Source: Syntrophorhabdaceae bacterium
Lineage (GTDB): Bacteria; Desulfobacterota; Syntrophorhabdia; Syntrophorhabdales; Syntrophorhabdaceae
Direction of reading: 5' to 3'
Assembly (NCBI GenBank): GCA_963666485.2
Contig: CAXXUO010000001.1
Coordinates: 256,001 to 320,000 of the forward strand
Length of the DNA stretch: 64,000 nucleotides
This document shows positions 26,613-57,427 of the stretch, piece after piece. The notes beneath the pieces were generated by a model. The model searched no databases. It was not told the origin of the DNA and saw only the letters and a list, made by a program, of their open reading frames with translations. The position numbers and the translations under genes were made by a program. The number at the start of each line of letters is the position of its first letter. Position 1 is the first letter of the stretch.

Positions 26613-27908
26613 TTGATTTCAGATCCTTTAAAACATCTGGCAAGCTCCATCCCGCAATGCCTGGTACGCCGGTATGCACAGGTTGCCTTAGCCCTGGCGC
26701 TCGCCATGTTCCTCGGGTGCGCCGCAGCGGGTGCCGCACCGGGCGAGCTGACCATCGACGAGGCGCTGGCCCAATTTTACGAGAACAATCTCGATATCAT
26801 AATAAACCGGTACGAGGTCGATAAATCGTATGCAGATTATGTCACGGCCAAACTGATACCCAACCCTGCCCTGACGGTCAATTATAACAATCTCGAGATC
26901 TCACAGGGCAAAACGAACCGCGGTGACAACACCCAGCTGACCATCCGCGTCGACCAGCTCATCGAGACAGCGGGGAAGAGGACGTACAGGACGAATACGG
27001 CCAACGAACTGTACGAGGCCGCCAAGATCACGCATAAAGACGTCATCAGGAATCTCCTGATCGGGTTTTACTCGTTGTACTACTCGATCAATCTCGACAT
27101 GTTCAACGTCGATTTTGCGAAACATGAGCTCACTCTTTACAACAGGCTCCTCGAGATCGCAAAAAAGAAGCACAATGCCGGGTTCCTCTCGACAATGGAT
27201 TACACAAAGCTCAAGATGAGGCGGATCGAGCTCGCCAACAACGTTGTAAACTTCGAGACGCAGCTGAAGAATGATCTGAGCGCCTTTACCGTACTTTTGG
27301 GAAAAGAGGAGGCAATGAGGCCGGCCAGGATCAAACTTCACGAGAATCTCCGGAAATACAACGAGGAAGAGCTCGTAACCATAGCCCAGGAGAACCGCTA
27401 CGACCTGCTCTCCTTGAAGCGGCAGCTCAAGGCCGCAGACAACGCTGTCATGCTCGCAAAGGCCGGGAGGTTTCCCGATTTCAGCATAGGCGGGGAATAC
27501 GATTCCATCGGCAATCCCGCGAAGAATGCTGTCGGGGCAGGTTTCAGCATACCGCTCCCGATCTTCTCGAGGTCGCAGGGTGCGATCCTGAAAAGCGAGG
27601 CCCTGAAAAAACAGGTGGAAACACAGATAACGAAAGTGAAGCGGACGATAACGCTGGAGGTCCAGCAGTCCCTCAATACCTACAAAGCATCCGCACAGAT
27701 CTTTGAGACATATAACCAGAGCAAACCTGAGATGGACAACCTCATGACGAACAGTACAAAGGCATTTACGCTGGGCGGCATTACGGTGCTCGACCTTCTC
27801 GACGCCGAGAGAACATACAGGGAGTTTATGACGAAATATCATCAGGCCTTCATCCAGGCAATTCTGAACAGCGATCTCATCAAGGTGTATACGGGTGAAA
27901 TGAAATGA
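26613..27908 (+). CDS. TolC/CzcC-like outer membrane efflux protein
   Basis: OEP repeats (PNP, IPLPIF); AGGAG RBS, TTG start. Confidence 0.88.
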   Translation: MISDPLKHLASSIPQCLVRRYAQVALALALAMFLGCAAAGAAPGELTIDEALAQFYENNLDIIINRYEVDKSYADYVTAKLIPNPALTVNYNNLEISQGKTNRGDNTQLTIRVDQLIETAGKRTYRTNTANELYEAAKITHKDVIRNLLIGFYSLYYSINLDMFNVDFAKHELTLYNRLLEIAKKKHNAGFLSTMDYTKLKMRRIELANNVVNFETQLKNDLSAFTVLLGKEEAMRPARIKLHENLRKYNEEELVTIAQENRYDLLSLKRQLKAADNAVMLAKAGRFPDFSIGGEYDSIGNPAKNAVGAGFSIPLPIFSRSQGAILKSEALKKQVETQITKVKRTITLEVQQSLNTYKASAQIFETYNQSKPEMDNLMTNSTKAFTLGGITVLDLLDAERTYREFMTKYHQAFIQAILNSDLIKVYTGEMK

Positions 27909-28975
27909 AAAGATCAGTCTATTCCCTCGTCTTCTTTCTTCTGTGCGCATTGCTTCTCGTTTCATGCCATTCCAAGGAGAAAAAAGAAGAGAAGAGCGAG
28001 CTGAAGACATATAAGGTCACCGCTCAAGAGGTCCAGTTCTATGTCGAGGCGACGGGAAGTGTCCAGCCGGACCTGGGCGGGGCATCGAAGATCATCAGCC
28101 ACGTCCCCGGAACGGTTGCACAGATCCTCGTAAAACCGGGAGAGCGGGTGAAGAAAGGCTCCGCACTGCTTGTTATCAAGAGCCCTGACGCCACTGATGC
28201 GTACGCCGCCTACCTTTCCTCGGTCGCCCAGCTAAAACAGACCGAACGCATTTACAATCTCAATAAAGAACTGTTCGAGGTGGGTGCGGTCACGAAGAAC
28301 GATCTCTTGAACAGTGAGGCCAGTTTCCGGCAGATGGAGGCGGTCTCCGCGGGTTTAAGAAAAAAACTGAACCTGTACGGGTGCGGCATATCCGGCAGCA
28401 ACGAGGTAAAACGGGACAGTTGCTCCGATACAGTGACCATACGGGCGTCGATCCCGGGCTTTGTCGCCGATATCCAGACGCGCATCGGGGACAAGGTCGA
28501 TGCCACGACCGGCCTCATGACCATCGCCGACCCGCAGAATATCATCATTGTCGCCAACATCTACGATTCGGACATACCCAAGATCAAGAAAGACAGCAAC
28601 GTTACATTTTACGCGGACATCTTCGAGAATACCCCGTTCAAGGGCGTCGTCACGTACGTAAGCGACATCTCGGACACGGAATCGAAAACGGTGAAGACCT
28701 TTATCAAGATCCTCGACAGAAAGGACGTCTTCAAACAGAACATGTTCCTGAAACTGAAGATCGAAAGGGAAAAGAGGTCTTTTGCCGTCGTCCCTCAATC
28801 CGCGATCATCTACAAAGACGGTAATTTCTACGTGTACAAGGCGCTCAAGGACGGGAAGAACGAGTTGAAACAGGTAAAGGCCGTTCGTGAACTTCCCGGG
28901 AAATTCATGGCCGTCGAAGGCATCAGCGAAGGCGACCCGATAGTCCTGTCGGCGATAGAACTGGAAAGACCATGA
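27905..28975 (+). CDS. RND periplasmic adaptor (CzcB-like)
   Basis: Lipobox LVSC, lipoyl-like halves; coupled to the neighbouring genes. Confidence 0.88.
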   Translation: MKRSVYSLVFFLLCALLLVSCHSKEKKEEKSELKTYKVTAQEVQFYVEATGSVQPDLGGASKIISHVPGTVAQILVKPGERVKKGSALLVIKSPDATDAYAAYLSSVAQLKQTERIYNLNKELFEVGAVTKNDLLNSEASFRQMEAVSAGLRKKLNLYGCGISGSNEVKRDSCSDTVTIRASIPGFVADIQTRIGDKVDATTGLMTIADPQNIIIVANIYDSDIPKIKKDSNVTFYADIFENTPFKGVVTYVSDISDTESKTVKTFIKILDRKDVFKQNMFLKLKIEREKRSFAVVPQSAIIYKDGNFYVYKALKDGKNELKQVKAVRELPGKFMAVEGISEGDPIVLSAIELERP

Positions 28976-31900
28976 GAAAGTGGACCGTCTTCGTAACCCG
29001 CAACAGCGGGCTTATCATTGTCCTCATTTCGACTGCGTTTTTGATGTCCCTCTTTGTCGTAAGGGGCCTCAACATAGAGGCCTTTCCGGACCCCTCGCCC
29101 CCCATGGTGCAGATCGTTACGATATACGAGGGAAAGTCGGCGGAGGAGGTTGAAAGGCGGATAACGATCCCTCTCGAGACGGGCCTCGCCGGAATGCGGG
29201 GCATGGAGAGGATAAGTTCGACATCGCTCTACGGCCTGTCCGACGTGAAATGCAAGTTCTCCTACGACATACCGTACAGGGAGGCGCGGCAGGAGGTCTT
29301 GAACCGGCTCGCCGACACGCAGCTTCCCGACGGCGTGAACGCGAACATCATAGCGAGCCCGATGGGCGAGGTCATGCAGTACGTCTTTTACGGGTCGAAC
29401 AACCTCATGGAACTCAGGACGCTGCAGGACTGGACCGTCAGCAGGTACTTGAGGACCGCCCAGGGCGTAGAAGACGTCGCCAGCTACGGCGGCTTCATCA
29501 AGGCATATGTCGTCAAGGTCATACCGGAAGACCTCATTAAATACAACCTCACGTTATCTCAGATCATAGAAGCCCTCCAGAAATCCAACGTCAGCGTCGG
29601 TGGACGGATCGTCGAACTCGGAGACCAGTACTACATGGTCAGGGGACTGGGGCTCATCCGGGACATCAAGGACATCGAGAACAATGTCGTCCAGTACAAG
29701 AACGGCAAGGCGATCCTTATCAAGAACATAGCGGAAGTGAGCCTCGGCAATATTCCGAGGACCGGCATCGTTATCTATAACAGGAGTGATGACGTCGTCA
29801 TGGGCAACGTCATGCTCAGGCGCGGCGAGAAGAGCATCCCTTCCATTCAATCGCTCAACCAGAAGGTCGCCGAGCTCAATGAAAAGATACTCCCCAAGGG
29901 GATCACCATAAAACCTTACTACGAACGGTGGGAGCTGATCCGGACCGTCATCGTAAAGGTCGTTGAAACCGCAACGAGCGGTATCCTGCTCGTAGGGATC
30001 ACGCTCTTTTTGTTCCTGGGTAATTTCCGGGCAGCGATCCTCACCGCTCTCGTCATACCCATCTCGCTCGCCATTACCCTCGCGGTTATGGCGATGAGCG
30101 GGGATTCGGCGAACCTCCTGTCCATCGGGGCCATCGATTTCGGGATCATCGCCGACATCGCCCTCGTCCTTTCCGAGAACTATATCCGCATCGCGAGAAA
30201 ACAGGCAGGAAGGAAGAGCCCCGGGGACAGGCTCCTCGTGCGGGCAATGACCGAGGTCGGCTCCCCGATCATACTCCTCGTTCTCATCATCATCACCGCA
30301 TTCATACCCATATTCACGATGAAAGGTGCTGAGAAGCAGATCTTTTCGCCCATGGCGAAAACATATTCCTATGCCCTTTTCTTTACGCTCCTTTTGACAT
30401 TCACCTATCTCACCGCCTCGATACACCTTTTCATCGAGGGGCGCGAAGGGAAAGACCTGAAATTCGTCGACAAGATGGAGCGGTATTACTCGAAGATAGT
30501 CAGTTCCCTCATGGCAAACGCCCGCAGGGTGCTGACGATAACCGGATGCGTGATATTCGCGGGCTTCATTGTCGGCTACATTGTCATAGGCACGCAGTTC
30601 CTCCCGAAAATGGATGAAGGGAACATTTATATCCGTGTCACGTTCCCCTATTCGATAGCATTGACCAAGACCCACGAAAACGCAAAAAAGGTCCGGGACA
30701 TAATAATGCAGTTCGATGAGATCAAGACGGTCGCCGTACGTGTCGGCAGGCCCGAAGACGGCACCGATGCGACAGGCCCGTTCAACAGCGAGTTCTTCCT
30801 CGGCCTGAAACCCTACTCCAAGTGGAAAAGGGGCATCAGCAAGGAACAGCTGGAAGATGAGCTCAGGACGAAACTGACGCGGCAATTCGCGAACGCAACC
30901 ATCAGTGTCTCGCAATACATGCAGGACAACCTCGAGGAGATGACGTCCGGCGTCAAGGGCGAGAATGCCGTGAAGATCTACGGCGAAGACCTTATCCAGC
31001 TCGACAAGATGGCAAAGGACGTGAAGGAAAAGATGGAGAAGATCCGCGACATCAAAGAGGTCGGGGTATACAGGGAACTCGGGCAGCCGAACCTTCTCAT
31101 CGAGATAAACCGTGAGAACACCGCGTCGCTTGGCCTCAACATCCAGGACGTTCTCGACATGATATCGGCCGCACTCGGCGGCAAGATAGTCAACCAGGTC
31201 ATAGAGGGTGAGAAAAATTTCGCGCTCCAGGTCAGCTTTCCCTATGAATACAGGAACCAGCCGGAAAAGATAGCGAGCATCCCGATCGTCCTCCCGGGGG
31301 GCGGCATCGTGCCTCTTTCCCGGGTCGCACACATCCACTACGACACCGGTGCTTCCTTCATATACCGGGAAAATTACCGGAGATATATCCCGATCAAGTT
31401 CAACGTCGATTCCGGGGACCTCGGCGGGACCGTCGCAAAGGCCAAGAGAGAGGTTGAGAAGGTGCAGCTTCCCAGCGGGTATTTCATGGAATGGAGCGGT
31501 ATGTTCAATGAAATGAAAGCGGCATTCCAGAGGTTCTACATCTCTATCCCGATCGCCATCTTCCTCATCATCATCCTCCTCTATATCTTCTACGGAAACC
31601 TGAGGAACGTGGCACTGACGGTGGTCGCTCCGGTGTGCACGGTATTCGGAGGGCTCATAAGCCTTCTCGTGACAGGTCAGTCGCTCAGCATATCGTCAAT
31701 CGTGGGTTTCGTGTCCATCATAGGCATCTCCACCTTTGACACGTGCATCGTGATCAATCATTATATCGAGGTTTACAAGGAAATCAGGGACAAGGAAAAG
31801 GCGACGTTCCAGACGATCAAGGACAAGTTCAGGTCGATCCTTATGGTTGGCCTCGTAGCATCGATCGGTCTTCTGCCTGCCGCGATATCCCACGGGGTCG

Positions 31901-32016
31901 GCAGCCAGGTGCAAAAACCGCTTGCGATAGTCGTCGTGGGAGGCATGCTCATCGGGACATGCATCATACTTGTTATCGTACCCTTGCTTTTCAAGTATGT
32001 TCATATCAAGGACTAG
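28972..32016 (+). CDS. CzcA/CusA-family heavy-metal RND transporter
   Basis: IEAFPD, GAIDFGIIAD, QKPLAIVVVGG; 1014 aa. Confidence 0.9.
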   Translation: MRKWTVFVTRNSGLIIVLISTAFLMSLFVVRGLNIEAFPDPSPPMVQIVTIYEGKSAEEVERRITIPLETGLAGMRGMERISSTSLYGLSDVKCKFSYDIPYREARQEVLNRLADTQLPDGVNANIIASPMGEVMQYVFYGSNNLMELRTLQDWTVSRYLRTAQGVEDVASYGGFIKAYVVKVIPEDLIKYNLTLSQIIEALQKSNVSVGGRIVELGDQYYMVRGLGLIRDIKDIENNVVQYKNGKAILIKNIAEVSLGNIPRTGIVIYNRSDDVVMGNVMLRRGEKSIPSIQSLNQKVAELNEKILPKGITIKPYYERWELIRTVIVKVVETATSGILLVGITLFLFLGNFRAAILTALVIPISLAITLAVMAMSGDSANLLSIGAIDFGIIADIALVLSENYIRIARKQAGRKSPGDRLLVRAMTEVGSPIILLVLIIITAFIPIFTMKGAEKQIFSPMAKTYSYALFFTLLLTFTYLTASIHLFIEGREGKDLKFVDKMERYYSKIVSSLMANARRVLTITGCVIFAGFIVGYIVIGTQFLPKMDEGNIYIRVTFPYSIALTKTHENAKKVRDIIMQFDEIKTVAVRVGRPEDGTDATGPFNSEFFLGLKPYSKWKRGISKEQLEDELRTKLTRQFANATISVSQYMQDNLEEMTSGVKGENAVKIYGEDLIQLDKMAKDVKEKMEKIRDIKEVGVYRELGQPNLLIEINRENTASLGLNIQDVLDMISAALGGKIVNQVIEGEKNFALQVSFPYEYRNQPEKIASIPIVLPGGGIVPLSRVAHIHYDTGASFIYRENYRRYIPIKFNVDSGDLGGTVAKAKREVEKVQLPSGYFMEWSGMFNEMKAAFQRFYISIPIAIFLIIILLYIFYGNLRNVALTVVAPVCTVFGGLISLLVTGQSLSISSIVGFVSIIGISTFDTCIVINHYIEVYKEIRDKEKATFQTIKDKFRSILMVGLVASIGLLPAAISHGVGSQVQKPLAIVVVGGMLIGTCIILVIVPLLFKYVHIKD

Positions 32017-33942: not shown

Positions 33943-35430
33943 TCATCGGGTTTTCAGGGCATTCGTGATATCGTCGCTCTTCCATCCCCCGCCGAGGGCT
34001 TTGATGAGAAGAACGCTGGCGGCCATCCGCCTACCGAGTATGTCTATTGCCACCCTTTCAGCATTCAACGCAGCCGCCTGGGCGACGACCACGTTCAGGT
34101 AGCTTACGGTCCCCTGTTCGTATTGATTAAGGGAAAATTCCAGCGATTTGCGTGCCGCGGCAAGGGCTTCGTCCTGCGCCTTCGATTCCTCCTCGAGGAT
34201 CCTGAGCGCCGCCACGTTGTCCTCGACCTCCTTGAAACCGGTAAGCACGGTCTGGCGGTACGAGGCAACCGCGGCATCGTAGGCCGCCCTCGACTGGTCG
34301 GTCAGGGCCCCTCTCAAACCGCCATCGAAAAGGGTCTCGCTGACAGCGGGGCCGACTGCCCAGTAGCGGCTTGGCCACGTAAGCCAGTTGGAGCTCTCGG
34401 TGCTTTCATAGCCGCCGGTCGCGCCGAGCGTGACCCGGGGAAAGTACGCTGACAGGGCCACGCCGATCTGCGCGTTTGCCGCCGCGACCCTGCGCTCCGC
34501 CGCCGCTATGTCGGGCCTGCGCTCGAGCAGGTCGGACGGCAGGCCGACAGGGACATCCGGAGGAGTAAATACAAGCTTCTTGACCGGCAGCGAAAAAGAC
34601 GATGCAATTTTCCCGGTCAGCACGGCAATGGCATGCTCCAGTTGAGCGCGCTGGACGCCGGTATCGATCGCCTGGGCTTTCGTCGTTTTCAGCTGGGTCT
34701 CGGCCTGCAACACGTCGGCGCGGGTAGCGACACCGCTTTCATACTGGTTCTTCGTCAATTGCAGCGATCTCTCGTACGCGGCGACCGTTGCATTGAGAAG
34801 TTCCCTTTGCATGTCCAGTATCCGCAGCTGGAAATACGCAACCGCAAGTTGCGACTGGCTGCTCAAACGGATCCCTTCGAGGTCTGCGGCGCTCGCTTCG
34901 GCCCCCGCCTTCGCGGCTTCCACGGTCCTCCTGATGCGGCCCCAGAGGTCAAATTCCCAGGAGACGGTGACGGGCAAGAGAAAATTGTTGTAGGGGGAAG
35001 CGGAGGCTCCGGATTCGGTGTTGTTGGCCGATCTCTGAAGACGCGTCACTGACGCCCCGGCCGTGATCGTCGGGAAATATGCCGACTGCGCAGCCTGGAT
35101 GAGGGAGCGCGCCTGCCGGAACTGGGCCTCGGCCGCGATCACGGTCTGGTTGGAAACGTTCACCTCGCCGGCAAGGGTATTCAAGTCGTGATCCCCGAAT
35201 ACCTCCCACCAGGGGCCCCGGGCGATCGCGTCGCGCGGCTGCGCAACCTTCCAGCCGTCGATCTCTTTGTATGTTTCCGGCACGGACATCGTCGGCCGCA
35301 CGTAATTCGGGCCGACCGAGCAGGCCGCGAGAACGGCTGCAGCGATCACCGCAAGACAAAAGCGGGAGGTGCGGAACGTATCATTCGCCTTTTTTATTGC
35401 CGCCAGTATACCCATTCGATCAGATATCAT
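33943..35430 (-). CDS. NodT/OprM-family outer membrane efflux lipoprotein
   Basis: LAAC lipobox, WEFDLWG, LLERRPDI, KALGGGW. Confidence 0.93.
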   Translation of the reverse strand: MISDRMGILAAIKKANDTFRTSRFCLAVIAAAVLAACSVGPNYVRPTMSVPETYKEIDGWKVAQPRDAIARGPWWEVFGDHDLNTLAGEVNVSNQTVIAAEAQFRQARSLIQAAQSAYFPTITAGASVTRLQRSANNTESGASASPYNNFLLPVTVSWEFDLWGRIRRTVEAAKAGAEASAADLEGIRLSSQSQLAVAYFQLRILDMQRELLNATVAAYERSLQLTKNQYESGVATRADVLQAETQLKTTKAQAIDTGVQRAQLEHAIAVLTGKIASSFSLPVKKLVFTPPDVPVGLPSDLLERRPDIAAAERRVAAANAQIGVALSAYFPRVTLGATGGYESTESSNWLTWPSRYWAVGPAVSETLFDGGLRGALTDQSRAAYDAAVASYRQTVLTGFKEVEDNVAALRILEEESKAQDEALAAARKSLEFSLNQYEQGTVSYLNVVVAQAAALNAERVAIDILGRRMAASVLLIKALGGGWKSDDITNALKTR

Positions 35431-35438
35431 AGTCTACC

Positions 35439-38400
35439 TCAGGCTTCCGGTTCCATGTATATATTTTTCATGCCGCTTCTCTTGCTCTTGCACCACAACC
35501 TGAACCGGTCGAGGTACAGGTACATGACGGGCGTCGTGTAGAGGGTCAGCATCTGGCTGATGACGAGCCCCCCGACGATCGTGACCCCTAAGGGACGCCT
35601 CAGTTCGGAGCCGACCCCGAACCCCAGTGCCAGGGGCAGCGCCCCGAGGAGCGCGGCCATCGTGGTCATCATGATGGGGCGGAAACGCAAAAGGCACGCT
35701 TCATAGATCGCCTCTTCGGGCCCTTTTCCCTGGCTGCGCTCTGCCTCGAGGGCAAAATCGACCATCATGATGCCGTTCTTTTTCACGAGACCGATGAGCA
35801 GGAAAAGACCGATGAGCCCGATAAGGTTCAGCTCCATGCGAAAGATGATGAGCGCGAGCAGTGCCCCGACGCCTGCCGAAGGCAGCGTCGTCAGGATGGT
35901 AATGGGGTGCACGTAGCTTTCATACAGAATGCCGAGAACGATATAGACGGTCAGGATGGCGGAGAGGATGAGAAGAGGCTGGTTGGCAGCGGCATCCTTG
36001 AACGCCTGGGCGGTGCCGGAAAAGCTGCCTCGGATCCCTGCCGGGAAATTCATCTCCTGTTTCGCTTTCTCTATGGAGGCGACCGCATTCCCGAGCGGTA
36101 TTCCCGGCGCAAGATTAAAGGAGACCGTAACGGACGGGAATTGCCCCTGGTGGGCGACGGCGAGCGACGTCGCGGTCCGCTCGAATTTCGCAAAACTGCT
36201 GAGCGGGACCATCTTGCCGGTCGTCGATTTTATGTAGATCTCCTTCAATGAGTCCGGGTTCTGCCAGAAACGCGGGTCGACGACCATCACGACACGGTAC
36301 TGGTTGAGGAGCGTGTAAATGATGGAGACCTGCCTCTGGCCGAAGGCGTCGTAGAGGGTGTTGTCGATCATGGCGGCAGTAATGCCGAGGCGTGAGGCCG
36401 TGTCCCGGTCGATCGTCAGCATGGCCTGCAGCCCCTTTGTCTGCTGGTCGCTGTTCACGTCGACGATCTCCGGCAGAGAGCGCATCATCTGCACAAGGGG
36501 CGGCCCCCAGTCATAGAGCACCGAGATGTCGGATGCCTGGAGCGTGTACTGGTACAGTGCGGCGCCTGCCCGTCCCCCGATGCGCAGGTCCTGCACGGAC
36601 TGGAGATACGTGGGTGCCCCCGGAAGCCCGGCAAGTTTTTTCCTAAGCCGCGACATGGTCTCGGTCAGGCTGCTTTTGCGCTTTTCAAAAGGCTTCAACG
36701 TGATAAAAAGGTTCGCGGTGTTGGCCGCCCCCGCCCCGCGGCCGCTGCCGCCCGTGAAGCCGGTCACGTACTCCACTTCAGGGTCTTCCTTTACTATGTT
36801 GACCACGGTAGACAATTTTTCCTTCATGCTCTGGAAAGAGACATCCTGTTCGGCCTGGATCGTACCGCGCAGCCGGCCGGTGTCCGTCTCCGGGAAGAAC
36901 CCCTTGGGAACGACAATGAAGAGAAACACGTTAACAGCGAAGGTGCCCATCATGATCACGAACATGAGGCGCGAGTGGCGCAGCGCCCACCGGAGGGTCA
37001 CATCGTAGAGGTCCCTCATCCTGTTGAAAATCCCTTCGCTCATCCTGTAAACCCAGTGATGCGCATGGGTCCTCTCCGATCTCAGGAACACGGCGCACAT
37101 CATCGGTGTCGTCGTGAGCGATATGACGAGTGAGATCATGATGGCGGTCGACAAGGTCACGGCAAATTCCCGGAACAGGCGGCCCACCATACCGCCCATG
37201 AGAAGGATGGGTATGAACACGGCGACGAGGGACAAGCTCATAGAGACGACTGTGAACGCTATCTCCCTCGACCCGCGCAGCGCTGCGTCCCGGGGAGAGA
37301 GTCCTTTTTCCATATAACGCGTGATGTTCTCCAGGACAACAATGGCATCGTCCACCACGAACCCGGTAGCGATCGTCAGGGCCATCAGGGAAAGGTTGTC
37401 GAGGTTGTACCCCATGAGGTACATCACCCCGAACGTGCCGACGAGCGACACGCCGACTGCGACGGCGGGGATAATGGTGGAGCGGACATGCCGTAAGAAC
37501 CCGAACACAACGAGAATAACGAGCGCTGCGGAGAGAAGAAGCGCATGCTCGACGTCTTTCAGCGAACCTCGAATAGGCGGCGTACGGTCCTGTACAACGG
37601 AAAGTCTCGTGCCGCCCGGTAGAGACGCCGTCATCTGGGGCAGGAGCTCGCGGACACGGTCCACCGTCTCGATTATGTTTGCCCCCGGCTGGCGGAAGAC
37701 TATCACCGAGACCGACGGTTTCCCGTTCATAAGGCCCATCGTGTTGATGTCTTCGACCGAATCCTGCACGTTGGCCACATCGGTGAGCCGGACCGCCGCC
37801 CCCGACCGGTAGGTCACGATCACATCCCGGTACTCGGCGGCCTTGCGCAGCTGATCGTTGGCCGTGACCTCCCAGGTCCTCGTAGCATCCGAAACCTGCC
37901 CTTTCGGCCTGTTGACATTGGTCGATGTAAGGACGCCGCGCACGTCCTCGAGGCTAATCGCATATTTGTTCAATGCCTCGGGGTTGATCTCCGCGCGGAC
38001 GGCCGGCAGCGAACCGCCCCCGACAAACACCTGGCCCACCCCCTTCACCTGGGCCAATTTCTGCTGAAGTATGGTGGATGCGGCATCGTACAGCTGGGGC
38101 ACACCCATCACGTCAGACTGGAGGGAGATGAGAAGAATAGGCGCATCAGCCGGGTTGACCTTACGGTATGTCGGGTTGTTAGGAAGGTTTGGCGGGAGGA
38201 ATCCCCTGGCCGCATTGATGGCCGCCTGCACATCTCGCGCCGCCCCGTCAATATTGCGATCGAGGTCGAACTGGAGCGTGATGTTCGTGGTGCCGCGGAA
38301 GCTGGTCGATGTCATCTCCGTCACGCCGGCTATCCTCCCGAACTGTCGTTCGAGGGGCGCCGCAACCGAGGTGGCCATGGTCTCAGGGTCGGCCCCCGGA

Positions 38401-38552
38401 AGGCCTGCGGAAACCTGGATCGTCGGAAAGTCAACTTGCGGCAGCGGCGCGACGGGCAGCAGCCGGAAGGAGACCACGCCCGAAAGCACTATGCCGAGAG
38501 TAATAAGGGCTGTGGCAACGGGCCTGCGGATGAATGTTGCCGAGAAATTCAT
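35439..38552 (-). CDS. mdtC: MdtC-like RND transporter
   Basis: [31 protein letters not shown]; second of a paired RND. Confidence 0.88.
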
Positions 38553-41500
38553 GGAAGGCCGGCACCCCTGCCGTCATCGCCCGATCTCTTCAGGCGCCAG
38601 TCGGCCAGTCTTCTTGCCGCGCGGTCAAACGCGAGGTAGATGACCGGGGTTGTATAAAGGGTCAGGACCTGGCTGATAACGAGCCCGCCTATGATCGTGA
38701 TGCCGAGCGGGCGGCGCAGTTCGGACCCGACCCCTGTCCCGAGGGCGAGCGGCAGGGCCCCGAGCAGTGCGGCGAGCGTCGTCATCATGATGGGGCGGAA
38801 CCTTAAGAGGGAGGCCTGGTAGATCGCTTCCCGGGGGGTCTTCCCCTCGGTGCGCTCCGCATCGAGGGCAAAGTCCACCATCATGATGCCGTTCTTCTTC
38901 ACGATGCCGATGAGCAGGATGACCCCGATCAGGGCAATGACGCTGAACTCGGACCGGCAGGCCATGAGCGCAAGGATCGCCCCCACGCCGGCCGACGGCA
39001 GGGTGGAGAGGATAGTGATCGGGTGAATATAGCTTTCATACAGTATGCCGAGGACGATATAGACGGTAACGAGGGCGGCAAGAATGAGAAAGGGCTCGTT
39101 CTCGAGGGAGACCCGGAAAGCCTGGGCCGTACCCTGGAAACTCCCCCGTATGCTCGCCGGAAAATTCATCTTTTTTTCCGCGGACTCTATGGCATCGACC
39201 GCGTGCCCGAGGGCCGCCCGGGGCGCAAGGTTAAAGGAGACGGTCGCCGCCGGGAACTGTCCCTGCCGGCTGATAACGAGAGGCCCCGTCGTCTCCGAGG
39301 TCTTGATGAAAGCCCCGAGGGGCACCTGTCCGCCGTTTATGCCCCGGACGTAAATATTACGCAGGGCCTCCGGTCCCTTCTGGAATTCGGGTTTCGCGGC
39401 CAGCACCACACGGTACTGATTGAGCTGGGTAAAGATCGTTGAAACCTGCCGCTGGCCGAATGCATCGTACAGCGCGTCATCGATCACCTGGGGGGTGACA
39501 CCGAGCCGCGAGGCCGTGGTGCGGTCGAATTCGACGAAAAGCTGAAGCCCTTTGTCCTGCTGGTCACTGCTCACATCGCGAAGGTAAGGGTTTGTCCGCA
39601 GGGATTCGACGAGCTTCGGGGTCAGCGTGTTCAGTTCTTCAAGGTCCGGGTCCTCGAGCGTGTACTGGTACTGGGTGCGGGTAACGCGCGCATCGACCGT
39701 CAGGTCCTGCACCGGCTGCATGAAGAGGGTTATCCCGTCCACCTTCTCCAGTTCCGGCTGAAGGCGCCTGATCACGTCACTTGCGCTTCCGTTCCTTTTC
39801 GAGAGAGGCTTGAGATTTATGAGGATCCGGCCGCTGTTGAGCGTCACATTCGTGCCGTCGACCCCGATGAACGACGAGAGGCTTTCGACCGCCGGGTCTT
39901 GCAGGACCACGCGGGCAAGCGCCTGCTGGCGTTCGGCCATTGCCGCGAAAGATATCGACTGCGGCGCCTCCGAGATCCCCTGGATGACCCCCGTGTCCTG
40001 CACCGGGAAGAAGCCTTTCGGTACAAAATAGAAGAGGAGGAGCGTAAAGACCAGCGTGCCGAGGGCAACCCAGAGGGTGGCCTTCTGCCTCTCCAGCACC
40101 CAGGTCAGCGTCCTGGCGTAGAATGCGATCACGCGGTCGAGGTATTCCTGTGACAACCGGTGAAACCGGCCCTGCCGGGCCTCTTCTTCATGTTTGAGCA
40201 GTTTTGCGCACATCATGGGTGTCAGCGTGAGGGACACGACGGCAGAGATAACGATCGTAACACCCAGCGTTATCGCGAATTCCCTGAACAGGCGCCCGAC
40301 CACGTCCCCCATGAACAGGAGGGGAATGAGAACGGCGACGAGGGAAACGGTGAGGGACAGGATGGTGAACCCGATCTGCTTCGAGCCTTTGAGCGCCGCC
40401 TCGAGCGGGGAATCGCCGGCTTCGATATACCTGGCGACGTTCTCGATCATGACGATGGCGTCATCGACGACAAAACCGGTCGAAATGGTGAGCGCCATCA
40501 GGGAGAGGTTGTTGAGGCTGAACCCCAGGAGATACATGGCGCCGAAGCTTCCGACAAGCGACAGCGGGACCGCCACGCTGGGGATGATCGTCGCCGGGAT
40601 GTTGCGTAGAAAGAGGAACATGACCATGACAACGAGGACCACGGCAAGGATCATCTCGAACTGCACGTCATGGACCGATGCCCGGATCGTGGTGGTCCGG
40701 TCCGTCAGGACGGAAACCTTTACGGACGGCGGCAGCGTCCCTTCGAGTACCGGGAGCACCTTCTTGATCTGGTCGACAACCTGGATGACGTTGGCCCCCG
40801 GCTGCCTCTGTATGTTGACGATTATGGCAGGGGAGCCGTCCTTCCAGGCCGCCTGCTTGACATTCTCGGCATCGTCGATGGCATCGGCGACATCGGACAA
40901 TCTCACAGGGGCGCCGTTGCGATAGGCGACGACCAGTTCCCTGTATTGCTTGCTTGAATAGAGCTGGTCGTTGGCCCCGATGATGTAGGACACCCGCGGG
41001 CCGTCAAAACCGCCCTTCGCCTGGTTGACGTTCGCGGCTGCAATCGCGGCCCTAAGGTCCTCGAGTGTCAGTCCGTACGCGGCAAGCGCCGTGGGGTTGG
41101 CATGCACCCGTACCGCCGGCCTCTGACCGCCGCTCAAGCTGACGAGCCCGACCCCGGGAAGCTGCGAGATCTTTTGCGCAAACCGCGTGTCAGCAAGGTC
41201 CTCCACCTGTGCGAGCGGCATCGTCTCCGATGTCAGGGCGAGCGTCAGGATCGGCGCATCTGCCGGATTCACTTTACTGTATACCGGCGGGATCGGAAGG
41301 TCCCGGGGCAGGTAGGTAAACGACGCGTTTATGGCCGCCTGCACCTGCTGTTCGGCGACGTCGAGGCTCAGGTCCAGGGTAAACTGGAGCGTTATGATCG
41401 AACTGCCGCTCGAACTTGTCGATGTCATCTGCGTCAAGCCCGGCATCTGCCCGAACTGGCGCTCGAGAGGGGCCGTTACGGAAGACGCGATAACATCGGG

Positions 41501-41665
41501 GCTTCCGCCCGGGTAAAATGTCCTTACCTGGATGGTGGGGTAATCCACCTGGGGGAGTGCTGAGACCGACAGCTGCTTGTACGCCACCGCGCCGCTTAAG
41601 AACAGCGCCACCATGAGCAGCGTCGTCGCCACGGGCCGGATGATGAAAATACGGGAGATGTTCAT
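38549..41665 (-). CDS. mdtB: MdtB-like RND transporter
   Basis: [26 protein letters not shown]. Confidence 0.88.
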
Positions 41666-43011
41666 CAACGCCCCTTTCGGGGTGTTTCCGCAGCCGCAGG
41701 CTTCGGTGTTTCCTTTGGTGCCTCCCTGGTTCCTTCCCGGGGTGCCTGCGCCGCCGCGGGCTTGGGTATTTCCTTCGGCCCTTCCTTTGCTCCTTCCCGG
41801 GGTGCACGGGCCGTTGCATTCTTCGGCGCTACTTTCGTTCCTTCAACGAGCCTTTCGGCCCCATCCGTCACGACCTGTTCGCCCGGGGCGATCCCGGTTT
41901 TGATCGAGGCGTCCTCACCCTGTATATCGTCGACAACGACCTTGCGGGCCGTGACCGTCCGGTCCTCTTTCATGACATAGATAAACGTCCCCTGGGGCCC
42001 CCGCCTGATCGCGGAAGACGGCACGATGGTGGCCCCGGCGCGAACGTCGACCAGCAGTTTCGCGTTGACGAACTGGTTCGGGAACAGCTCGTTTTCCTTA
42101 TTGGCAAAAACCGCCTTGAGCTTGACCGTTCCCGTTCCCGTGTCTATCTGGTTGTCTATCGTCTGCAACTGGCCTGTTGCCAGTTTTTCCTTCTGTTCGC
42201 GGTCATAGGCGTCGACAGGCATGGCGGTTCCCGTTTTGAACCTTCGCAGCACCTGCTGAAGGCTGTCCTCGGTGACGGGGAATACCACGGTCATCGGCTG
42301 GAGCTGGGTAATCACCATGAGCCCGTTCGTATCGCTGGCACGGACCATGTTCCCCGGGTCAACGAGGCGAAGGCCGACGCGCCCGGCGATCGGCGATGTT
42401 ATACGGCAATAGACGAGCTGCAGCTTCGCATTGTCGACGAGCCCCTGGTCGACCTTTACCGCGCCCTCATACTGCTTGACCAATGCCGTCTGCGTATCGA
42501 GTTGCTGCTTTGAGATCGAGTCCTTCTGCCAGAGCACCTTGTAGCGCTCGAGGTCAACGCGCGCGTTGGCAAGCAGTGCCAGATCACGGGCCAGCTGGCC
42601 TTCCGCCTGTTCGAGCTGCACCTTGAAGGGCCTCGTATCGATCATGACGAGGAGGTCCCCCTTCTTCACAACCTGCCCCTCTTTGTAATGGACCTCCATG
42701 AGCTGCCCGTCCACGCGGCTGCGCACAGTCACCGTATTTATCGGTGTCACTGTGCCGAGGCCGTTCACGTAAACGTAAAAGTCCCCCTTGCGTGCCGGGG
42801 AGATCGTAACCGGCATGACGCGTCCCTGGTTGCTGTTTGCTTTTTTGGCGGCACTCGCCCTGTCCATGGCCGGTTTTACGAAAACGATGTACACCAATAC
42901 AAGAATGGCGCACCCTATCCCCAGTGCGATCCATCGGTGCTTCCTCAAAGCGTTGAAAAAGACCTGGCCACGGCCGCCGCCGGTGCCTTTCCCGCTTTGT
43001 TCGTTTTCCAT
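41665..43011 (-). CDS. mdtA: MdtA-like RND adaptor
   Basis: [18 protein letters not shown]-terminal 20-aa tandem repeat; start 43011 or 43035. Confidence 0.88.
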
Positions 43012-43123
43012 AGGTCCTGCCTCCTCACGCTGCACGCATCGGGCATGGGACGTGCGTGATGCCGGCCTTCCCTGCCATCCTCGAAATTCTCTTATTTTAA
43101 ACGCAACTGTATATTAAAATCCT

Positions 43124-44747: not shown

Positions 44748-45467
44748 TTATCCAGGATGGTGCGGATCCCAAAATGGGCCCGTTTTCCCCAGTTTTTGGA
44801 ACGCTATGATCATTTCCGGCCCGTATTCCTTGAGGTGCGACAAATAATCGTGCTCCATTCTTTTCCTGAACAGCGGGCCGCTAAAGACCGTTGCCCAATC
44901 AGGCAGCGGCATGATCGAATCCGCTGAAATGGGATCGTACGATGACCATTTCTTCGCATGCTCTTCCGACCGGAAGAGGTTCATGCGGCTTCAGGCCATG
45001 CCCCAGGGCACTTCCTGTGTCAGTGCCTTGGCAAACGGGACGTTGACATGCCCGACCACGGACGGCGGGTCTATCCCGATTATGCGATCGTCCCGCATGT
45101 GCACGCGGATCGGCTCGCCGCAATCAAGACAGCGTGTTTCAATAAGGACGTCTTTTCCGGGAAATAGCCAGCGTACCGCCAGCGATTCCATCCCTCACTG
45201 GCCGTACCACTTCCGGACCCCTGCTATCGAGATCAAATAGTGGGTAGGGACATTCGAGAACGGCGCCCACGATTCGATATAGTCGGTATCCTTGACAAAC
45301 CAGCACGCCACCGCAGATTGGGCAGCCTTGTGCTGTATATTTCTTGCTTCTTCAGGCGGTAATCCCAGGATGTCCCCGAGTTCGGTATAATGAGGCGCCC
45401 TACCGGTCTTTATGAAATGATCTAACACAGCAGTATATGCTCGCTGAACCAATACATCGTTTTCCAT
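44748..45467 (-). CDS. MerB (organomercurial lyase)-like selenoprotein with two in-frame UGA/Sec (U91, U159), 239 aa
   Basis: Track ORFs 45195-45467, 44991-45191 and 44748-44984 share one frame, separated only by TGA; WYGQUGMESL ~ MerB YAWCALDTL, MAUSRMNLFRS ~ MerB FCCHVHFFAS; SECIS hairpin after each UGA; GGAGGAG RBS; TAA stop. Confidence 0.9.
44955..44987 (-). promoter_or_regulatory. Bacterial SECIS element for the second UGA (44991-44993)
   Basis: CGCATG-aac-CTCTTCC-GGTC-GGAAGAG-CATGCG; apical GGUC loop 19 nt after the UGA. Confidence 0.88.
45159..45194 (-). promoter_or_regulatory. Bacterial SECIS element for the first UGA (45195-45197)
   Basis: GGAAT-c-GCTGGCG-GTA-CGCTGGC-t-ATTTC stem (with G-U pairs); G-starting apical loop about 18 nt after the UGA. 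Confidence 0.75.
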
Positions 45468-45604
45468 CGTCTCCTCCTGTCCAGGGTAGGGAATAGAACA
45501 CGTGTGGTGGACGAAGAGTATTATTCCCTCGTGAAAACGTATGGTTCTTCGTATCGCCTGTCAAGGCCGGTCCGGAGACAGAAGAATGAGGCAGAGGATC
45601 TATA

Positions 45605-46279
45605 TCACATCTTTTTGAGGGTGACCAGGTAGAGCCTTTTCGGCAACCCGGTTTCTTCAAATTCCTCGATATCTATGACATCATAGCCTTTCGCCAGACG
45701 TTGAACCGTCTCCCGGTCAAAGAAATGCACGACGAAGCCGCCCGTGATCTCCCACATGTCATCACCGTGGTCCGCCCCCGTCCGATAGTGAGGGTCGTCT
45801 GCATTGCGCACGGTGTATATATTGAGTCCGCCCGGTTTCAGGATACGGCGGACCTCACCCGACAATTCTTCAAGCTCGGGGGTTGTAAGGGCCATGCAGT
45901 AAAGCATGTGGGAATAGCAGGCGTCGAAGATACCATCGTCAAAGGGCAAAGTCCTCCTCACATCGTGACATGTCGTCCCGACCAATGACGAAACATTATG
46001 GGCCTTCGCTTCCTTCATGACCGCATCGAGCCCTTCCTCGCTATAATCAAGGGCACAGACCTCAAAACCCTGCTCAGCGAAGAAGATGGTATCGCGTCCC
46101 TGTCCACTGCCCAGCTCGAGGACCCTTCTCACGCCCCGGGCCTTAAAAAGATCGCAGGCCTTCACGGCGGCATAGCTTGGCTCATTCCCGAACATCTGCG
46201 TGTGCTGAACGAACATTCTCTGCCAGTGGCCCCGCTGACCGTTCAGTACGTTCCTGTCCTTTTCATCGCCGTTATCCAT
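45605..46279 (-). CDS. Class I SAM-dependent methyltransferase (TehB-like/Methyltransf_25)
   Basis: VLELGSGQGRD, LPF..FDACYSH, RILKPGG; GGAGG before the ATG at 46279 (alternative start 46324). Confidence 0.88.
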   Translation of the reverse strand: MDNGDEKDRNVLNGQRGHWQRMFVQHTQMFGNEPSYAAVKACDLFKARGVRRVLELGSGQGRDTIFFAEQGFEVCALDYSEEGLDAVMKEAKAHNVSSLVGTTCHDVRRTLPFDDGIFDACYSHMLYCMALTTPELEELSGEVRRILKPGGLNIYTVRNADDPHYRTGADHGDDMWEITGGFVVHFFDRETVQRLAKGYDVIDIEEFEETGLPKRLYLVTLKKM

Positions 46280-46335
46280 TCCGCCTCCGGGCCCGGCCGC
46301 GATCTTTGCGGACCATCCGGCCATTTCATCATTCT

Positions 46336-46344
46336 ATTATAGCA
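46336..46344 (-). promoter_or_regulatory. Extended -10 promoter for the methyltransferase (possibly also the lyase)
   Basis: TGcTATAAT on the minus strand. Confidence 0.55.
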
Positions 46345-46391
46345 GGGTGCCCCTTAAGGTACATGCGGCCCATTTCCCGGTCAAGATATCC

Positions 46392-46420
46392 TTGACATAA
46401 AAAATGGTGCTTTCTATACT
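46392..46420 (+). promoter_or_regulatory. Sigma70 promoter for the pilT pair
   Basis: TTGACA-17 bp-TATACT. Confidence 0.75.
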
Positions 46421-46538
46421 TTACGCTATAATTCTTGAAAAGAAGCGCAGCTTCATCTTTTTTCTCCTGTACCTGATTTAAAGGACATCTCTCGCAGCAC
46501 AGGAATAATTCAAATCTTCTTTGACGTGGAGACTTTTT

Positions 46539-47618
46539 ATGGCTGAGCTGGATGAAGTACTGATCGAAGCGACGAACGCCAGGGCATCGGACCTGCACCT
46601 GGTACCCGGAGAACCTTTTGTCATCCGGCAATTCGGGCGCCTGATAAAGATGGAGCGCCCCTCCCTGGCCCGTGAAAAATGCGAATTCCTTATTTATGAA
46701 CTTCTCGATGACGAACAAAAGGAGGCCCTCGACAAGAGGCTCCAGCTCGATTTCGCCTATCAGATAGACGGGGTCGCCAGGTTCCGCGGCAGTGCGATGC
46801 GGCACCATGCAGGGATCAGCGCATCCTTCCGGATCATCTCATTCGAGATCCCTACATTTGAAACCCTCGGCCTCCCCGATACGATGAAAAGGATCATGGA
46901 CAATCACCAGGGACTGGTCCTTGTGACCGGCGCGACCGGACAGGGGAAATCGACAACGCTGGCGGCCATGGTCGATTACGTCAATACGAACCGGGCCCAT
47001 CACATCCTTTCAATAGAAGATCCTATTGAATATGTTCACCCCTGGAAGAAATGCGCCGTCAACCAGCGGCAGCTGGGCCGTGACACGCTGGCCTATGCCA
47101 ATGCTTTGCGGGCCGCGCTTCGCGAGGACCCGGATGTCATTGTGGTGGGCGAGCTCAGGGACCTCGAGACGATCGCCCTCGCCATTTCCGCGGCGGAAAC
47201 GGGCCATCTCGTCCTCGGGACGCTGGCCACGTCGAGCGCCCCGAAGACCATTGACCGCATCGTCGATTCATTCCCGGCCGGGGAACAGGGGCAGATCCGG
47301 GCCATGCTGGGCGAATCGTTGAAGGCGGTCATCACCCAGAGGCTTATCCCGCGCGCCGATCTCACTTCGATGGCCCTGGCGCTGGAAATATTGATCGGGA
47401 CGCTTCCCATGGCCACGCTCATCCGGGACGGAAAGGTCTTTCAAATCCCCTCGATGATGCAGATGGGAAAGGCTCTCGGCATGCAGATCATGGACGAATC
47501 GATCATGGCGCTGTTTCAGTCAAAGGCCATCAGCGCAACGGAGGCATACCTGAACGCGAACAACAAGGCCCCTTTCAAGCCGTTGATGGAAAGAGAAAAC
47601 CAGACCAGAACAAATTGA
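46539..47618 (+). CDS. pilT: Type IV pilus retraction ATPase PilT paralog
   Basis: ASDLHL, GATGQGKST, EDPIE, LREDPD, GELRD. Confidence 0.9.
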   Translation: MAELDEVLIEATNARASDLHLVPGEPFVIRQFGRLIKMERPSLAREKCEFLIYELLDDEQKEALDKRLQLDFAYQIDGVARFRGSAMRHHAGISASFRIISFEIPTFETLGLPDTMKRIMDNHQGLVLVTGATGQGKSTTLAAMVDYVNTNRAHHILSIEDPIEYVHPWKKCAVNQRQLGRDTLAYANALRAALREDPDVIVVGELRDLETIALAISAAETGHLVLGTLATSSAPKTIDRIVDSFPAGEQGQIRAMLGESLKAVITQRLIPRADLTSMALALEILIGTLPMATLIRDGKVFQIPSMMQMGKALGMQIMDESIMALFQSKAISATEAYLNANNKAPFKPLMERENQTRTN

Positions 47619-56593: not shown

Positions 56594-57427
56594 CTAGCAG
56601 CACCATGTGCCGTTCTTTTCCCCAACGACGGTGTAAGCGGTAAGCACTGCCAGGAAACTGCCTTTTCGGGTCCTGTCAATAAGCTCCTCTATCCAGCGGC
56701 TGCCCTCAGCCGCGCGGACCACTCCATTCGCGGCGGCCCTTCGGACGGTTTCCCGCAAATTGTAAACCTTATCGGCTGTTTCAAAGTCGGTTAAGCGGAA
56801 AGTGCCGGGATATGCCTTTACATTTGATAAACCGGAAGAAATGAAAAGACCGCGAAGGTCCCGGCCGATGCGGCTGTTCGCGAAGGAACCGGACCAGAAT
56901 TTCTCAAGTGACCGGGTGACCTCGCGGTCCCCGGAGGTTATCGAAAACGTGCCCCAATCGTTATCGTAGGCGAGGAGCAGCCCGCCGGGCTCAAGAACGC
57001 GCACCAGTTCGGATACGGCCGTTTCCGGCCGGGGGACGTGCTGCAGTACCCGGTCGATCCTGCACCGTGAAAAGTAATTGTCCGGAAAAGGCAGGGCCCG
57101 CATATCTCCCACCTGGAACTCGACGGGCAGGGCCGCACAGCCTGTGCCCGACCGGGCCTTGTCTATCATGGCCGAACTCGAGTCGACGGCCATCACCCTC
57201 CCGCCGGGCATTACGCGTTCGGCGATCCTGCGCGCGTCGTCACCGACACCGCAACCGGCCTCAAGGACTTTCATCCCGGGCTCAAGCTGCAGCAGTTCAT
57301 AGCTTTTCAGCTTGTATTCCCTGAAATACGGCAAGGACTCCAGCAAGGTAAGGCAGGCAAAGTACGCATCCCGGTCCGTTGCACCGTCAACGTCTCTAAA
57401 ACCGGTTGAGAGATATTCTTCGATCGT
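56594..57427 (-). CDS. SAM-dependent methyltransferase (UbiE-like), apparent non-ATG start
   Basis: VLEAGCGVG, LPFPD..RVLQH; the frame stays open 27 codons above the TTG up to ACG/ATC behind a GGGAG RBS. Confidence 0.75.
   Translation of the reverse strand, partial: TIEEYLSTGFRDVDGATDRDAYFACLTLLESLPYFREYKLKSYELLQLEPGMKVLEAGCGVGDDARRIAERVMPGGRVMAVDSSSAMIDKARSGTGCAALPVEFQVGDMRALPFPDNYFSRCRIDRVLQHVPRPETAVSELVRVLEPGGLLLAYDNDWGTFSITSGDREVTRSLEKFWSGSFANSRIGRDLRGLFISSGLSNVKAYPGTFRLTDFETADKVYNLRETVRRAAANGVVRAAEGSRWIEELIDRTRKGSFLAVLTAYTVVGEKNGTWCC

Follow-up and report, generated by a model that had tools for sequence, protein, structure and literature searches.

A MerB-fold gene with predicted selenocysteine at both catalytic cysteine positions in a Syntrophorhabdaceae genome

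The 64,000-nucleotide stretch of DNA analysed here (the window; positions 256,001 to 320,000 of contig CAXXUO010000001.1, Syntrophorhabdaceae bacterium, assembly GCA_963666485.2) carries at 44748-45467, on its minus strand, a frame of 239 codons that is interrupted by two TGA codons. We propose, with a probability of roughly 0.7, that a single intact gene lies here and is translated into a cytosolic selenoenzyme of the MerB fold, which contains two selenocysteine (Sec) residues and acts as a carbon-metal(loid) lyase. An earlier reading of the same DNA, made without database searches (the sequence-only reading), had suggested that both catalytic cysteines of MerB are recoded as Sec, with Glu at the column of MerB Asp99. 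This double-Sec assignment is supported by alignment to MerB, by the corresponding columns in homologs, by predicted selenocysteine insertion sequence (SECIS) elements and by the Sec machinery of the genome.

The frame runs from an ATG at 45467-45465 to a TAA at 44750-44748, and its only in-frame stops are the TGA at 45197-45195 (codon 91) and the TGA at 44993-44991 (codon 159). Translation with table 11 cuts it into open reading frames (ORFs) of 90, 66 and 78 aa. A Shine-Dalgarno-like AGGAGGAG, read from the sequence at 45471-45478 on the minus strand, ends 3 nt before the ATG and places its GGAGG core 5 nt before it. Re-reading of the strand showed the coordinates and anatomy given by the sequence-only reading to be correct: three ORFs in one minus-strand frame are split only by the two TGAs, and the ribosome-binding site, the TAA end and the length of 239 aa were all borne out. 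As far as the coding sequence can tell, the region is confirmed as one intact gene and not three small ones.

Assignment to the MerB family was made with Sec entered as Cys for profile and sequence programs. The Pfam MerB profile (PF03243) matches residues 70-191 over profile positions 1-117 of 126 and gives 74 bits (gathering score 27; E = 1.4e-20). Among PDB sequences, HMMER ranks MerB2 (5c17, E = 5e-10) first and classical MerB next. In HMMER alignments to PDB MerB chains, WYGQ-U91-GME94SL falls on YAW-C96-ALD99TL, C113 of CLDCG on Cys117, and A-U159-SRMNLF on F-C159-CHVHFF, reproducing the residue alignments at Cys96/Asp99, Cys117 and Cys159 that had been drawn without these structures. 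The UGA at codon 91 (45195-45197, minus strand) is accordingly placed at the MerB Cys96 column and the UGA at codon 159 (44991-44993, minus strand) at the Cys159 column, both being read as Sec, and Glu94 stands at the Asp99 column. The classical Cys96/Asp99/Cys159 triad is not present in the protein, the Sec/Glu/Sec set being chemically analogous and non-identical. The Cys117-column residue C113 belongs to a CxxC motif, C113-L-D-C116 (codons at 45120-45131, minus strand), and both of its cysteines are invariant across alignments of 94 and 30 sequences.

An AlphaFold2 model based on the 94-sequence alignment has a mean predicted local distance difference test (pLDDT) score of 96.8 and a predicted template modelling (pTM) score of 0.91. 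When this model was compared with the PDB by Foldseek, the top 11 matches were all MerB or MerB2 (probability 1.00, target template modelling score, TMt, 0.49-0.71), and the twelfth had E = 0.27. At the level of the predicted structure the MerB fold match is unambiguous, and the profile and structure searches that the sequence-only reading had recommended agree on family and fold alike. By homology, Sec91, Glu94 and Sec159 are expected to be close in space. A profile search of the genome found the window gene to be its only PF03243 member. The NCBIfam MerB equivalogs NF009710 and NF033555 are not reached (29.5 bits against 193 and 27.8 bits against 200, respectively), and no NCBIfam model (June 2026) matches the protein at cutoff.

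Homologs were collected from species-representative genomes and from metagenomes, and the counts given here rest on the best 80 of 539 confirmed relatives in the former scan and the best 80 of 575 in the latter. Among the genome loci, 74/80 have TGA at both columns, 5/80 have TGC/TGA, and one (L079) could not be aligned; the metagenome loci comprise 72/80 TGA/TGA and 8/80 TGY/TGA. Over the 159 alignable loci, 146 have TGA at column 91 and 13 have TGC or TGT there, while column 159 is TGA in 159/159, and TAA, TAG or TGG was found at neither column. The metagenome scan gave mostly TGA/TGA even when queried with a Cys-only alignment, and a targeted search for Cys-91 members matched only 2/301 Chloroflexota genomes. 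Glu94 is found in 80/80 aligned sequences (79 genome loci and the window). Of 60 relatives, six carry the gene in seven places, one genome having it twice with a second copy (L012) that is 41% identical; all of these copies have TGA at both columns save one at a contig end (L011), which covers the first column only. Since the TGAs occupy the same columns in homologs, and protein similarity runs across both of them, their placement is beyond chance. Carriers, judged by record title, belong to Thermodesulfobacteriota, Nitrospirota, Chloroflexota, Actinomycetota, Acidobacteriota, Myxococcota and Proteobacteria, and the genome loci include one cultured carrier, Desulforhabdus sp. TSK (L027).

Protein databases present the same family in a distorted form. 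A collection of 5.8 billion proteins was searched with a length filter of 131-419 aa, which drops the short pieces of genes with Sec at both columns, so that the resulting list over-represents Cys-91 forms. Cys-91 proteins of 154-158 aa end exactly before column 159, some under the name 'organomercurial lyase', and other entries are N-terminal fragments stopping at ...KWYGQ. The fragmentation by standard annotation that had been foreseen for this gene is thus what the databases hold. Full-length entries with Trp at both columns also occur; known from protein entries alone, they can be interpreted as TGA translated as Trp by a gene caller. Cys/Cys members are rare (P0012), and Cys at column 159 is seen in P0012 and P0004. 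The alternation of Cys and TGA codons proposed as a check by the sequence-only reading is therefore found directly at column 91 (TGA or TGY), column 159 being TGA in the loci and Cys in these few database members.

Each UGA is followed by a predicted hairpin. SECIS element 1, identified on the minus strand by folding and conservation, has a core GCUGGCG-GUA-CGCUGGC at 45167-45183 and an outer helix extending to 45158-45194. The core begins 11 nt after UGA91, with 18 nt from UGA to loop, and consists of a 7-bp stem with a GUA loop that encodes L96-A-V-R-W100; its minimum free energy (MFE) is -7.7 kcal/mol, and that of the extended helix -15.0 kcal/mol. SECIS element 2 (44953-44986, minus strand, likewise from folding and conservation) has an upper stem-loop CUCUUCC-GGUC-GGAAGAG at 44961-44978 flanked by a lower GCAUG/CAUGC helix. 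This upper stem-loop begins 12 nt after UGA159, with 19 nt from UGA to loop, and its 7-bp stem and GGUC loop encode L164-F-R-S-E-E169 (MFE -9.1 kcal/mol for the core and -16.3 kcal/mol when extended). The rules for bacterial SECIS elements summarised in a 2026 review (PMC13188914) are a loop of 3-9 nt with G at position 1 or 2, an upper stem of 4-16 bp, a UGA-to-loop distance of 16-37 nt and an MFE of -7.5 kcal/mol or lower, and both hairpins satisfy them.

Conservation of the two hairpins exceeds what the protein would require. For SECIS element 2, at least 6/7 pairs form in 80/80 sequences, 77/80 of which have GGUC as the loop. For SECIS element 1, 6/6 fixed-register pairs form in 75/75 genome sequences with UGA at column 91 and in 71/72 from metagenomes (146/147 jointly). 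In Cys-91 sequences it is intact in only 3/5 from genomes and 6/8 from metagenomes (9/13), the remainder having 5, 4, 5 and 2 pairs; hence the hairpin appears to be kept with the UGA and to decay once the UGA is lost. The comparison of codon use covered the window and 79 genome loci, which represent several phyla and have approximately 50-77% protein identity. Synonymous choice within SECIS element 2 is fixed (Leu164 CTC in 78/78, Arg166 CGG in 78/78, Ser167 TCG in 79/79 and Phe165 TTC in 80/80), and Arg99 within SECIS element 1 is CGC in 97%, whereas conserved Leu, Arg and Ser codons outside the hairpins have a codon entropy of 1.7-2.3 bits. The 12 hairpin codons have a mean codon entropy of 0.57 bits, whereas 49 conserved codons elsewhere average 1.46 bits (Mann-Whitney p = 1.3e-5, a value that overstates significance because the sequences are related). 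This pattern argues that synonymous sites in both hairpins are under RNA-level selection.

The frame itself was compared with sequencing reads. No variant letter was seen at either TGA in three mapped runs, which derive from one sample, probably the source sample, and are therefore not independent of the assembly; a run from a different sample mapped 0 reads to the locus. The Logan contigs of the three runs all end inside 44959-44998, within SECIS element 2, where word depth climbs from 2-11 to 31-71, and a second Logan contig matches 44969-45005 only and then diverges. Such a break fits a 31-mer common to several community members, and it seems that the invariant sequence of SECIS element 2, shared by several organisms of the community, fragments the assembly graph.

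The genome (3.77 Mb in 10 contigs) encodes two selA, two selB, selD and one tRNA-Sec with anticodon UCA, the set of Sec genes for which the sequence-only reading had advised looking. The selA and selB matches lie at C3:19439-24217, C1:229872-230966 and C4:168614-168754. One selA and one selB are about 3.5 kb apart on C3, and the second copies lie away from this pair, one selA being located about 25 kb before the window. The selD match (372 bits) has one in-frame TGA of its own. Furthermore, selA was detected in 5/5 tested carriers from other phyla. Of the findings that would have overturned the sequence-only reading (a genome lacking Sec genes, homologs with neither Cys nor Sec or with TAA or TAG at these columns, or no match to the MerB fold), none was obtained. 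Each hairpin, 11-12 nt downstream of its UGA, would recruit SelB with Sec-tRNA(Sec), so that Sec is inserted at codon 91 and again at codon 159 and termination is avoided. We infer that insertion at both UGAs is SelB-dependent.

Two explanations that do without Sec are effectively excluded by these data. The first regards the region as a decayed gene, or as three unrelated small ORFs with the TGAs as true stops, in keeping with its division by table 11 into 90, 66 and 78 aa. We consider this very improbable, since both TGAs are at identical columns in 146/160 fetched loci of many phyla with similarity continuing across them, the frame has no other stops or frameshifts, a conserved hairpin follows each TGA, and the full-length chain is modelled with the high pLDDT given above. 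The second explanation, genome-wide reassignment of TGA (e.g. to Trp or Gly) or non-specific readthrough, could account for the Trp that some gene callers placed at both columns in homologs. It can be given almost no weight: across the genome TGA terminates 960 of the 2,276 stop-to-stop frames that are 300 codons or longer, and the median open length that follows the stop in these frames is 22 codons for TGA against 23 for TAA and 24 for TAG, so that no additional open frame follows TGA. TGA is a normal stop elsewhere in the genome. The alternation of column 91 with TGC or TGT, and never with TGG in the aligned loci, likewise disagrees with reassignment, as does the calling of the UCA-anticodon tRNA as tRNA-Sec.

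To place the gene within the MerB superfamily, 401 genomes of the phylum were searched with Pfam MerB, and matches were obtained in 66 of them. By hand count, 65 of the 87 listed matches have two in-frame TGAs (in about 50 genomes, including a second, distant double-Sec lineage described below), 10 have one and 12 have none. A tree of 54 sequences (29 translated matches from the phylum and 25 family members; FastTree with the LG model, midpoint root) recovers the Sec/Glu/Sec proteins as monophyletic with two subclades, distinguished by the motifs 'KWYGQUG.E...AUSRMNLFRS', which includes the window protein, and 'KWFGQUAFE...AUSTMNFFRS'. A Cys/Glu/Cys clade and one Cys/Asp/Sec protein make up the sister group of these proteins, and SaoL-like proteins with a CU dipeptide branch off elsewhere. 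Inside the Sec/Glu/Sec clade, Cys-91 members are nested at three places, which suggests repeated replacement of Sec by Cys, the direction being read from the midpoint-rooted tree. On this phylogenetic evidence the window protein belongs to a large, mostly Sec/Glu/Sec clade of the MerB superfamily. Its gene is part of neither a mer operon nor the selenocysteine-assisted organometallic (SAO) system.

In MerB, Cys96 and Cys159 bind mercury and Asp99 donates a proton. By analogy, an organometallic compound would be gripped at its soft metal(loid) by the two selenolates of the window protein and protonated by Glu94 on the departing carbon, so that the carbon-metal(loid) bond is cleaved by protonolysis. 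The C113-x-x-C116 pair may accept the bound metal or re-reduce the selenols, a role we put forward as speculation. Among candidate substrates, methylmercury or some other organomercurial comes first, with organotin, organolead and organoarsenic compounds as alternatives.

Several points weigh against this lyase assignment. The proposed chemistry derives entirely from homology at three residues and from the fold. Ser is found at column 91 in P0004, P0009 and P0010, together with Cys or Trp at column 159; these are protein entries alone and could be real variants or artefacts. A bis-selenolate is expected to hold Hg(II) far tighter than two thiolates, which argues against fast mercury turnover. 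MerA was not found at cutoff anywhere in the genome (best match 339.6 bits against 454). No neighbour that would point to a substrate is conserved across the homolog loci. Finally, the link to hgcA is only partial. An HgcA is encoded at C9:149370-150317 (448.9 bits on NF040863, cutoff 275), which makes the genome that of a putative mercury methylator. By hand tally, HgcA exceeds the cutoff in 24/50 double-TGA carriers and in 95/351 non-carriers, where the 50 carriers include the second double-Sec lineage and phylogeny is uncorrected. The association is one of enrichment, not dependence, and an obligate link to hgcA was rejected, with HgcA over cutoff in only 24 of the 50 carriers.

The main rival takes the protein to be a double selenoprotein of MerB fold whose bis-selenolate site binds, sequesters, chaperones or senses a soft metal(loid) or organometal at very high affinity, without turnover. 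Hg-Se bonds are stronger than Hg-S bonds, which would make product release difficult, and neither MerA (genome search) nor another product-handling partner (flanking regions) accompanies the gene. A fused form of 425 aa, joining MerB to an AAA ATPase (P0122), would also suit such a module. It was the one fused protein obtained in a search for longer proteins, and the stand-alone form of 235-240 aa dominates, although that search is a weak one because truncation at Sec codons hides fusions. Binding alone is made less expected by the strict conservation of an acid at the proton-donor column (Glu in all aligned sequences, Asp in a few database members), as catalysis would require. We therefore consider a non-catalytic module unlikely, if clearly the strongest of the alternatives to a lyase.

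A role as a thiol/selenol redox enzyme is less probable again. Here Sec91, Sec159 and the CxxC motif would cycle through Se-Se or Se-S bonds to reduce a non-metal substrate, with the MerB fold as a mere scaffold. The invariant CxxC beside two Sec residues is compatible with this idea, as is the statement of the 2026 review (PMC13188914) that most bacterial selenoproteins are redox enzymes. Against it, the acid at the Asp99 column and both metal-ligand columns are kept exactly, fitting a lyase site, and clustering of the flanks of 81 homolog loci yielded no recurrent redox partner next to the gene. Moreover, we know of no oxidoreductase within the MerB family. The carbon-metal(loid) lyase remains the explanation we prefer.

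The surroundings of the gene were analysed for clues to its function. The sequence-only reading had noted the lack of merA and merR in the window, which holds for the ORFs scanned: no mer genes were found among them with Pfam or NCBIfam. When 1,887 flanking ORFs from the 81 homolog loci were clustered, the largest recurrent cluster was present at 15/81 loci and contained a response-regulator ORF, and no mer-like recurrent neighbour was found across these loci. The co-directional gene upstream in the window (45605 to 46279 or 46324, minus strand) encodes an S-adenosylmethionine (SAM) methyltransferase. It scores 275.8 bits (cutoff 380) against NF045649, the model for the double selenoprotein MduS, over model positions 5-214 of 338 only, and is probably a free-standing protein related to the methyltransferase domain of MduS. 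This gene ends in a TGA that is followed by 27 further open codons. A third Sec codon at that position was considered and rejected: no stable hairpin forms (z = +0.92, with 167/200 shuffles folding equally well or better), and the TGA is therefore taken as a true stop.

A conserved operon was likewise rejected. At five close homologs the methyltransferase, the GNAT-like ORF, MdtABC and PilT are not beside the gene, and the flanks are unrelated by Pfam. Because the pairing is absent at homolog loci, a fixed methyltransferase-lyase pair was dropped, and the gene appears, from its flanking sequences, to travel as a single gene. In the window itself, the MerB-like gene is followed downstream by a 377-aa ORF with a weak GNAT-type match and then by an MdtA/B/C-type resistance-nodulation-division (RND) pump with a NodT-family outer-membrane factor (33943-43035, minus strand). 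A CusA/CzcA-type heavy-metal RND pump with an adaptor and a TolC-like protein is located at 26613-32016 (plus strand). On the other side, beyond the methyltransferase, a 159-aa ORF without family match (46329-46808, minus strand) overlaps the start of a PilT/T2SSE-type ATPase (46521-47618, plus strand) by about 290 bp and is probably spurious. A second methyltransferase at 56594-57346 (minus strand) weakly resembles the methyltransferase part of selenoprotein families of arsenite-methyltransferase type (72.9 bits against 460).

The genes responsible for mer-independent demethylation of methylmercury are, to our knowledge, still to be established, and the Sec/Glu/Sec family offers a concrete, testable candidate with a cultured carrier, the Desulforhabdus strain named above. 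It is conceivable, at odds we would put well below even, that the clade as a whole consists of widespread, unrecognised bis-selenolate organometal lyases responsible for mer-independent methylmercury demethylation or for cleavage of other organometal(loid)s. If so, such lyases would be present in anaerobic mercury methylators, this hgcA-carrying genome being an example, as well as in soil and marine Actinomycetota and Chloroflexota. The family would then be a missing gene of environmental methylmercury turnover, and Sec at both ligand positions would represent an adaptation to catch trace substrate. The gene is present in hundreds of public genomes and metagenome contigs, and databases keep fragments of it or truncations named 'organomercurial lyase'. 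The family also provides a natural Cys-to-Sec series (C/C, C/U and U/U) on one scaffold.

As far as we could find, SaoL is the only MerB-type selenoprotein in print. A term search of the selenoprotein table in the 2026 review (PMC13188914) finds MerB twice, both times in the row for SaoL, and no selenoprotein whose catalytic metal ligands are both Sec; a 2022 review gives the same SaoL accession. MerB is absent from the entries in the main texts of the GOS 2008, Peng 2016, deep-Sep 2025 and BSepDB 2026 papers. Full-text literature searches, whose coverage excluded Haft & Tolstoy 2025 and supplements, returned no description of a two-Sec MerB.

SaoL is described in a preprint as a 'selenocysteine-assisted organometallic lyase' (Haft & Gwadz, bioRxiv 10.1101/2022.07.06.499078; NCBIfam NF040728). 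By that account it has about 213 aa, its single Sec sits in a Cys-Sec dipeptide, Cys99 and Asp102 are retained, and the protein is confined to anaerobes, where it marks a fixed nine-gene sao locus. The sequence-only reading had mentioned such a protein, and it exists as described, but it forms a separate family with a single Sec in its CU motif. SaoL and the window protein are both PF03243 members with Sec at the MerB Cys159 column, both are truncated by standard annotation, both lie outside the mer operon, and a defined substrate is given for neither. They differ in that the window protein has two Sec residues, A-U-S in place of C-U, and Glu for Asp. It reaches 41 bits against the SaoL cutoff of 140, over model positions 62-147 only, and the NCBIfam scan found no Sao family among the window ORFs, nor did the homolog flanks show a conserved neighbourhood. 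The two also fall in separate clades, carriers of the present gene including Actinomycetota, Chloroflexota and Acidobacteriota. By these sequence comparisons, the window protein is not SaoL.

With MerB (EC 4.99.1.2; PDB 3f0o/3f2f) and MerB2 (PDB 5c17) the protein shares the predicted fold (Foldseek probability 1.00, TMt 0.60-0.71), the three catalytic columns and a Cys at the Cys117 column. It differs from them in having Sec for both catalytic cysteines, Glu for Asp99 and an additional Cys116 that completes the CxxC motif, at an identity of about 16-25%, and unlike MerB it is found without a merA, merR or merTP context. The nearest relatives, the Cys/Glu/Cys sister clade (L118, L120, L126, L127 and L136; 'KWYGECAVE...WCD.NSFF'), resemble it in the KW[YF]G motif that precedes the first catalytic residue and in having Glu as the acid, whereas they have Cys at both catalytic positions, no TGA and no second invariant Cys of the CxxC motif. 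We know of no function for this clade. Its C-terminus is longer, giving proteins of 281-298 aa in L120, L126, L127 and L136; the 441-aa open frame of L118 includes a long upstream extension. The second double-Sec MerB lineage (L140, L238-L241 and L243-L245) occupies a distant branch, retains Asp as the acidic residue and, where MerB has Cys117, shows a single Cys. Like the window gene it has TGA at both catalytic columns with a hairpin after each, and its motifs ('YAAUA.DA...FU..SVFF[RW]SEE') and hairpins were confirmed in 8/9 loci examined. The hairpin after its second UGA has the same UUCC-GGUC-GGAA core as SECIS element 2 of the window gene.

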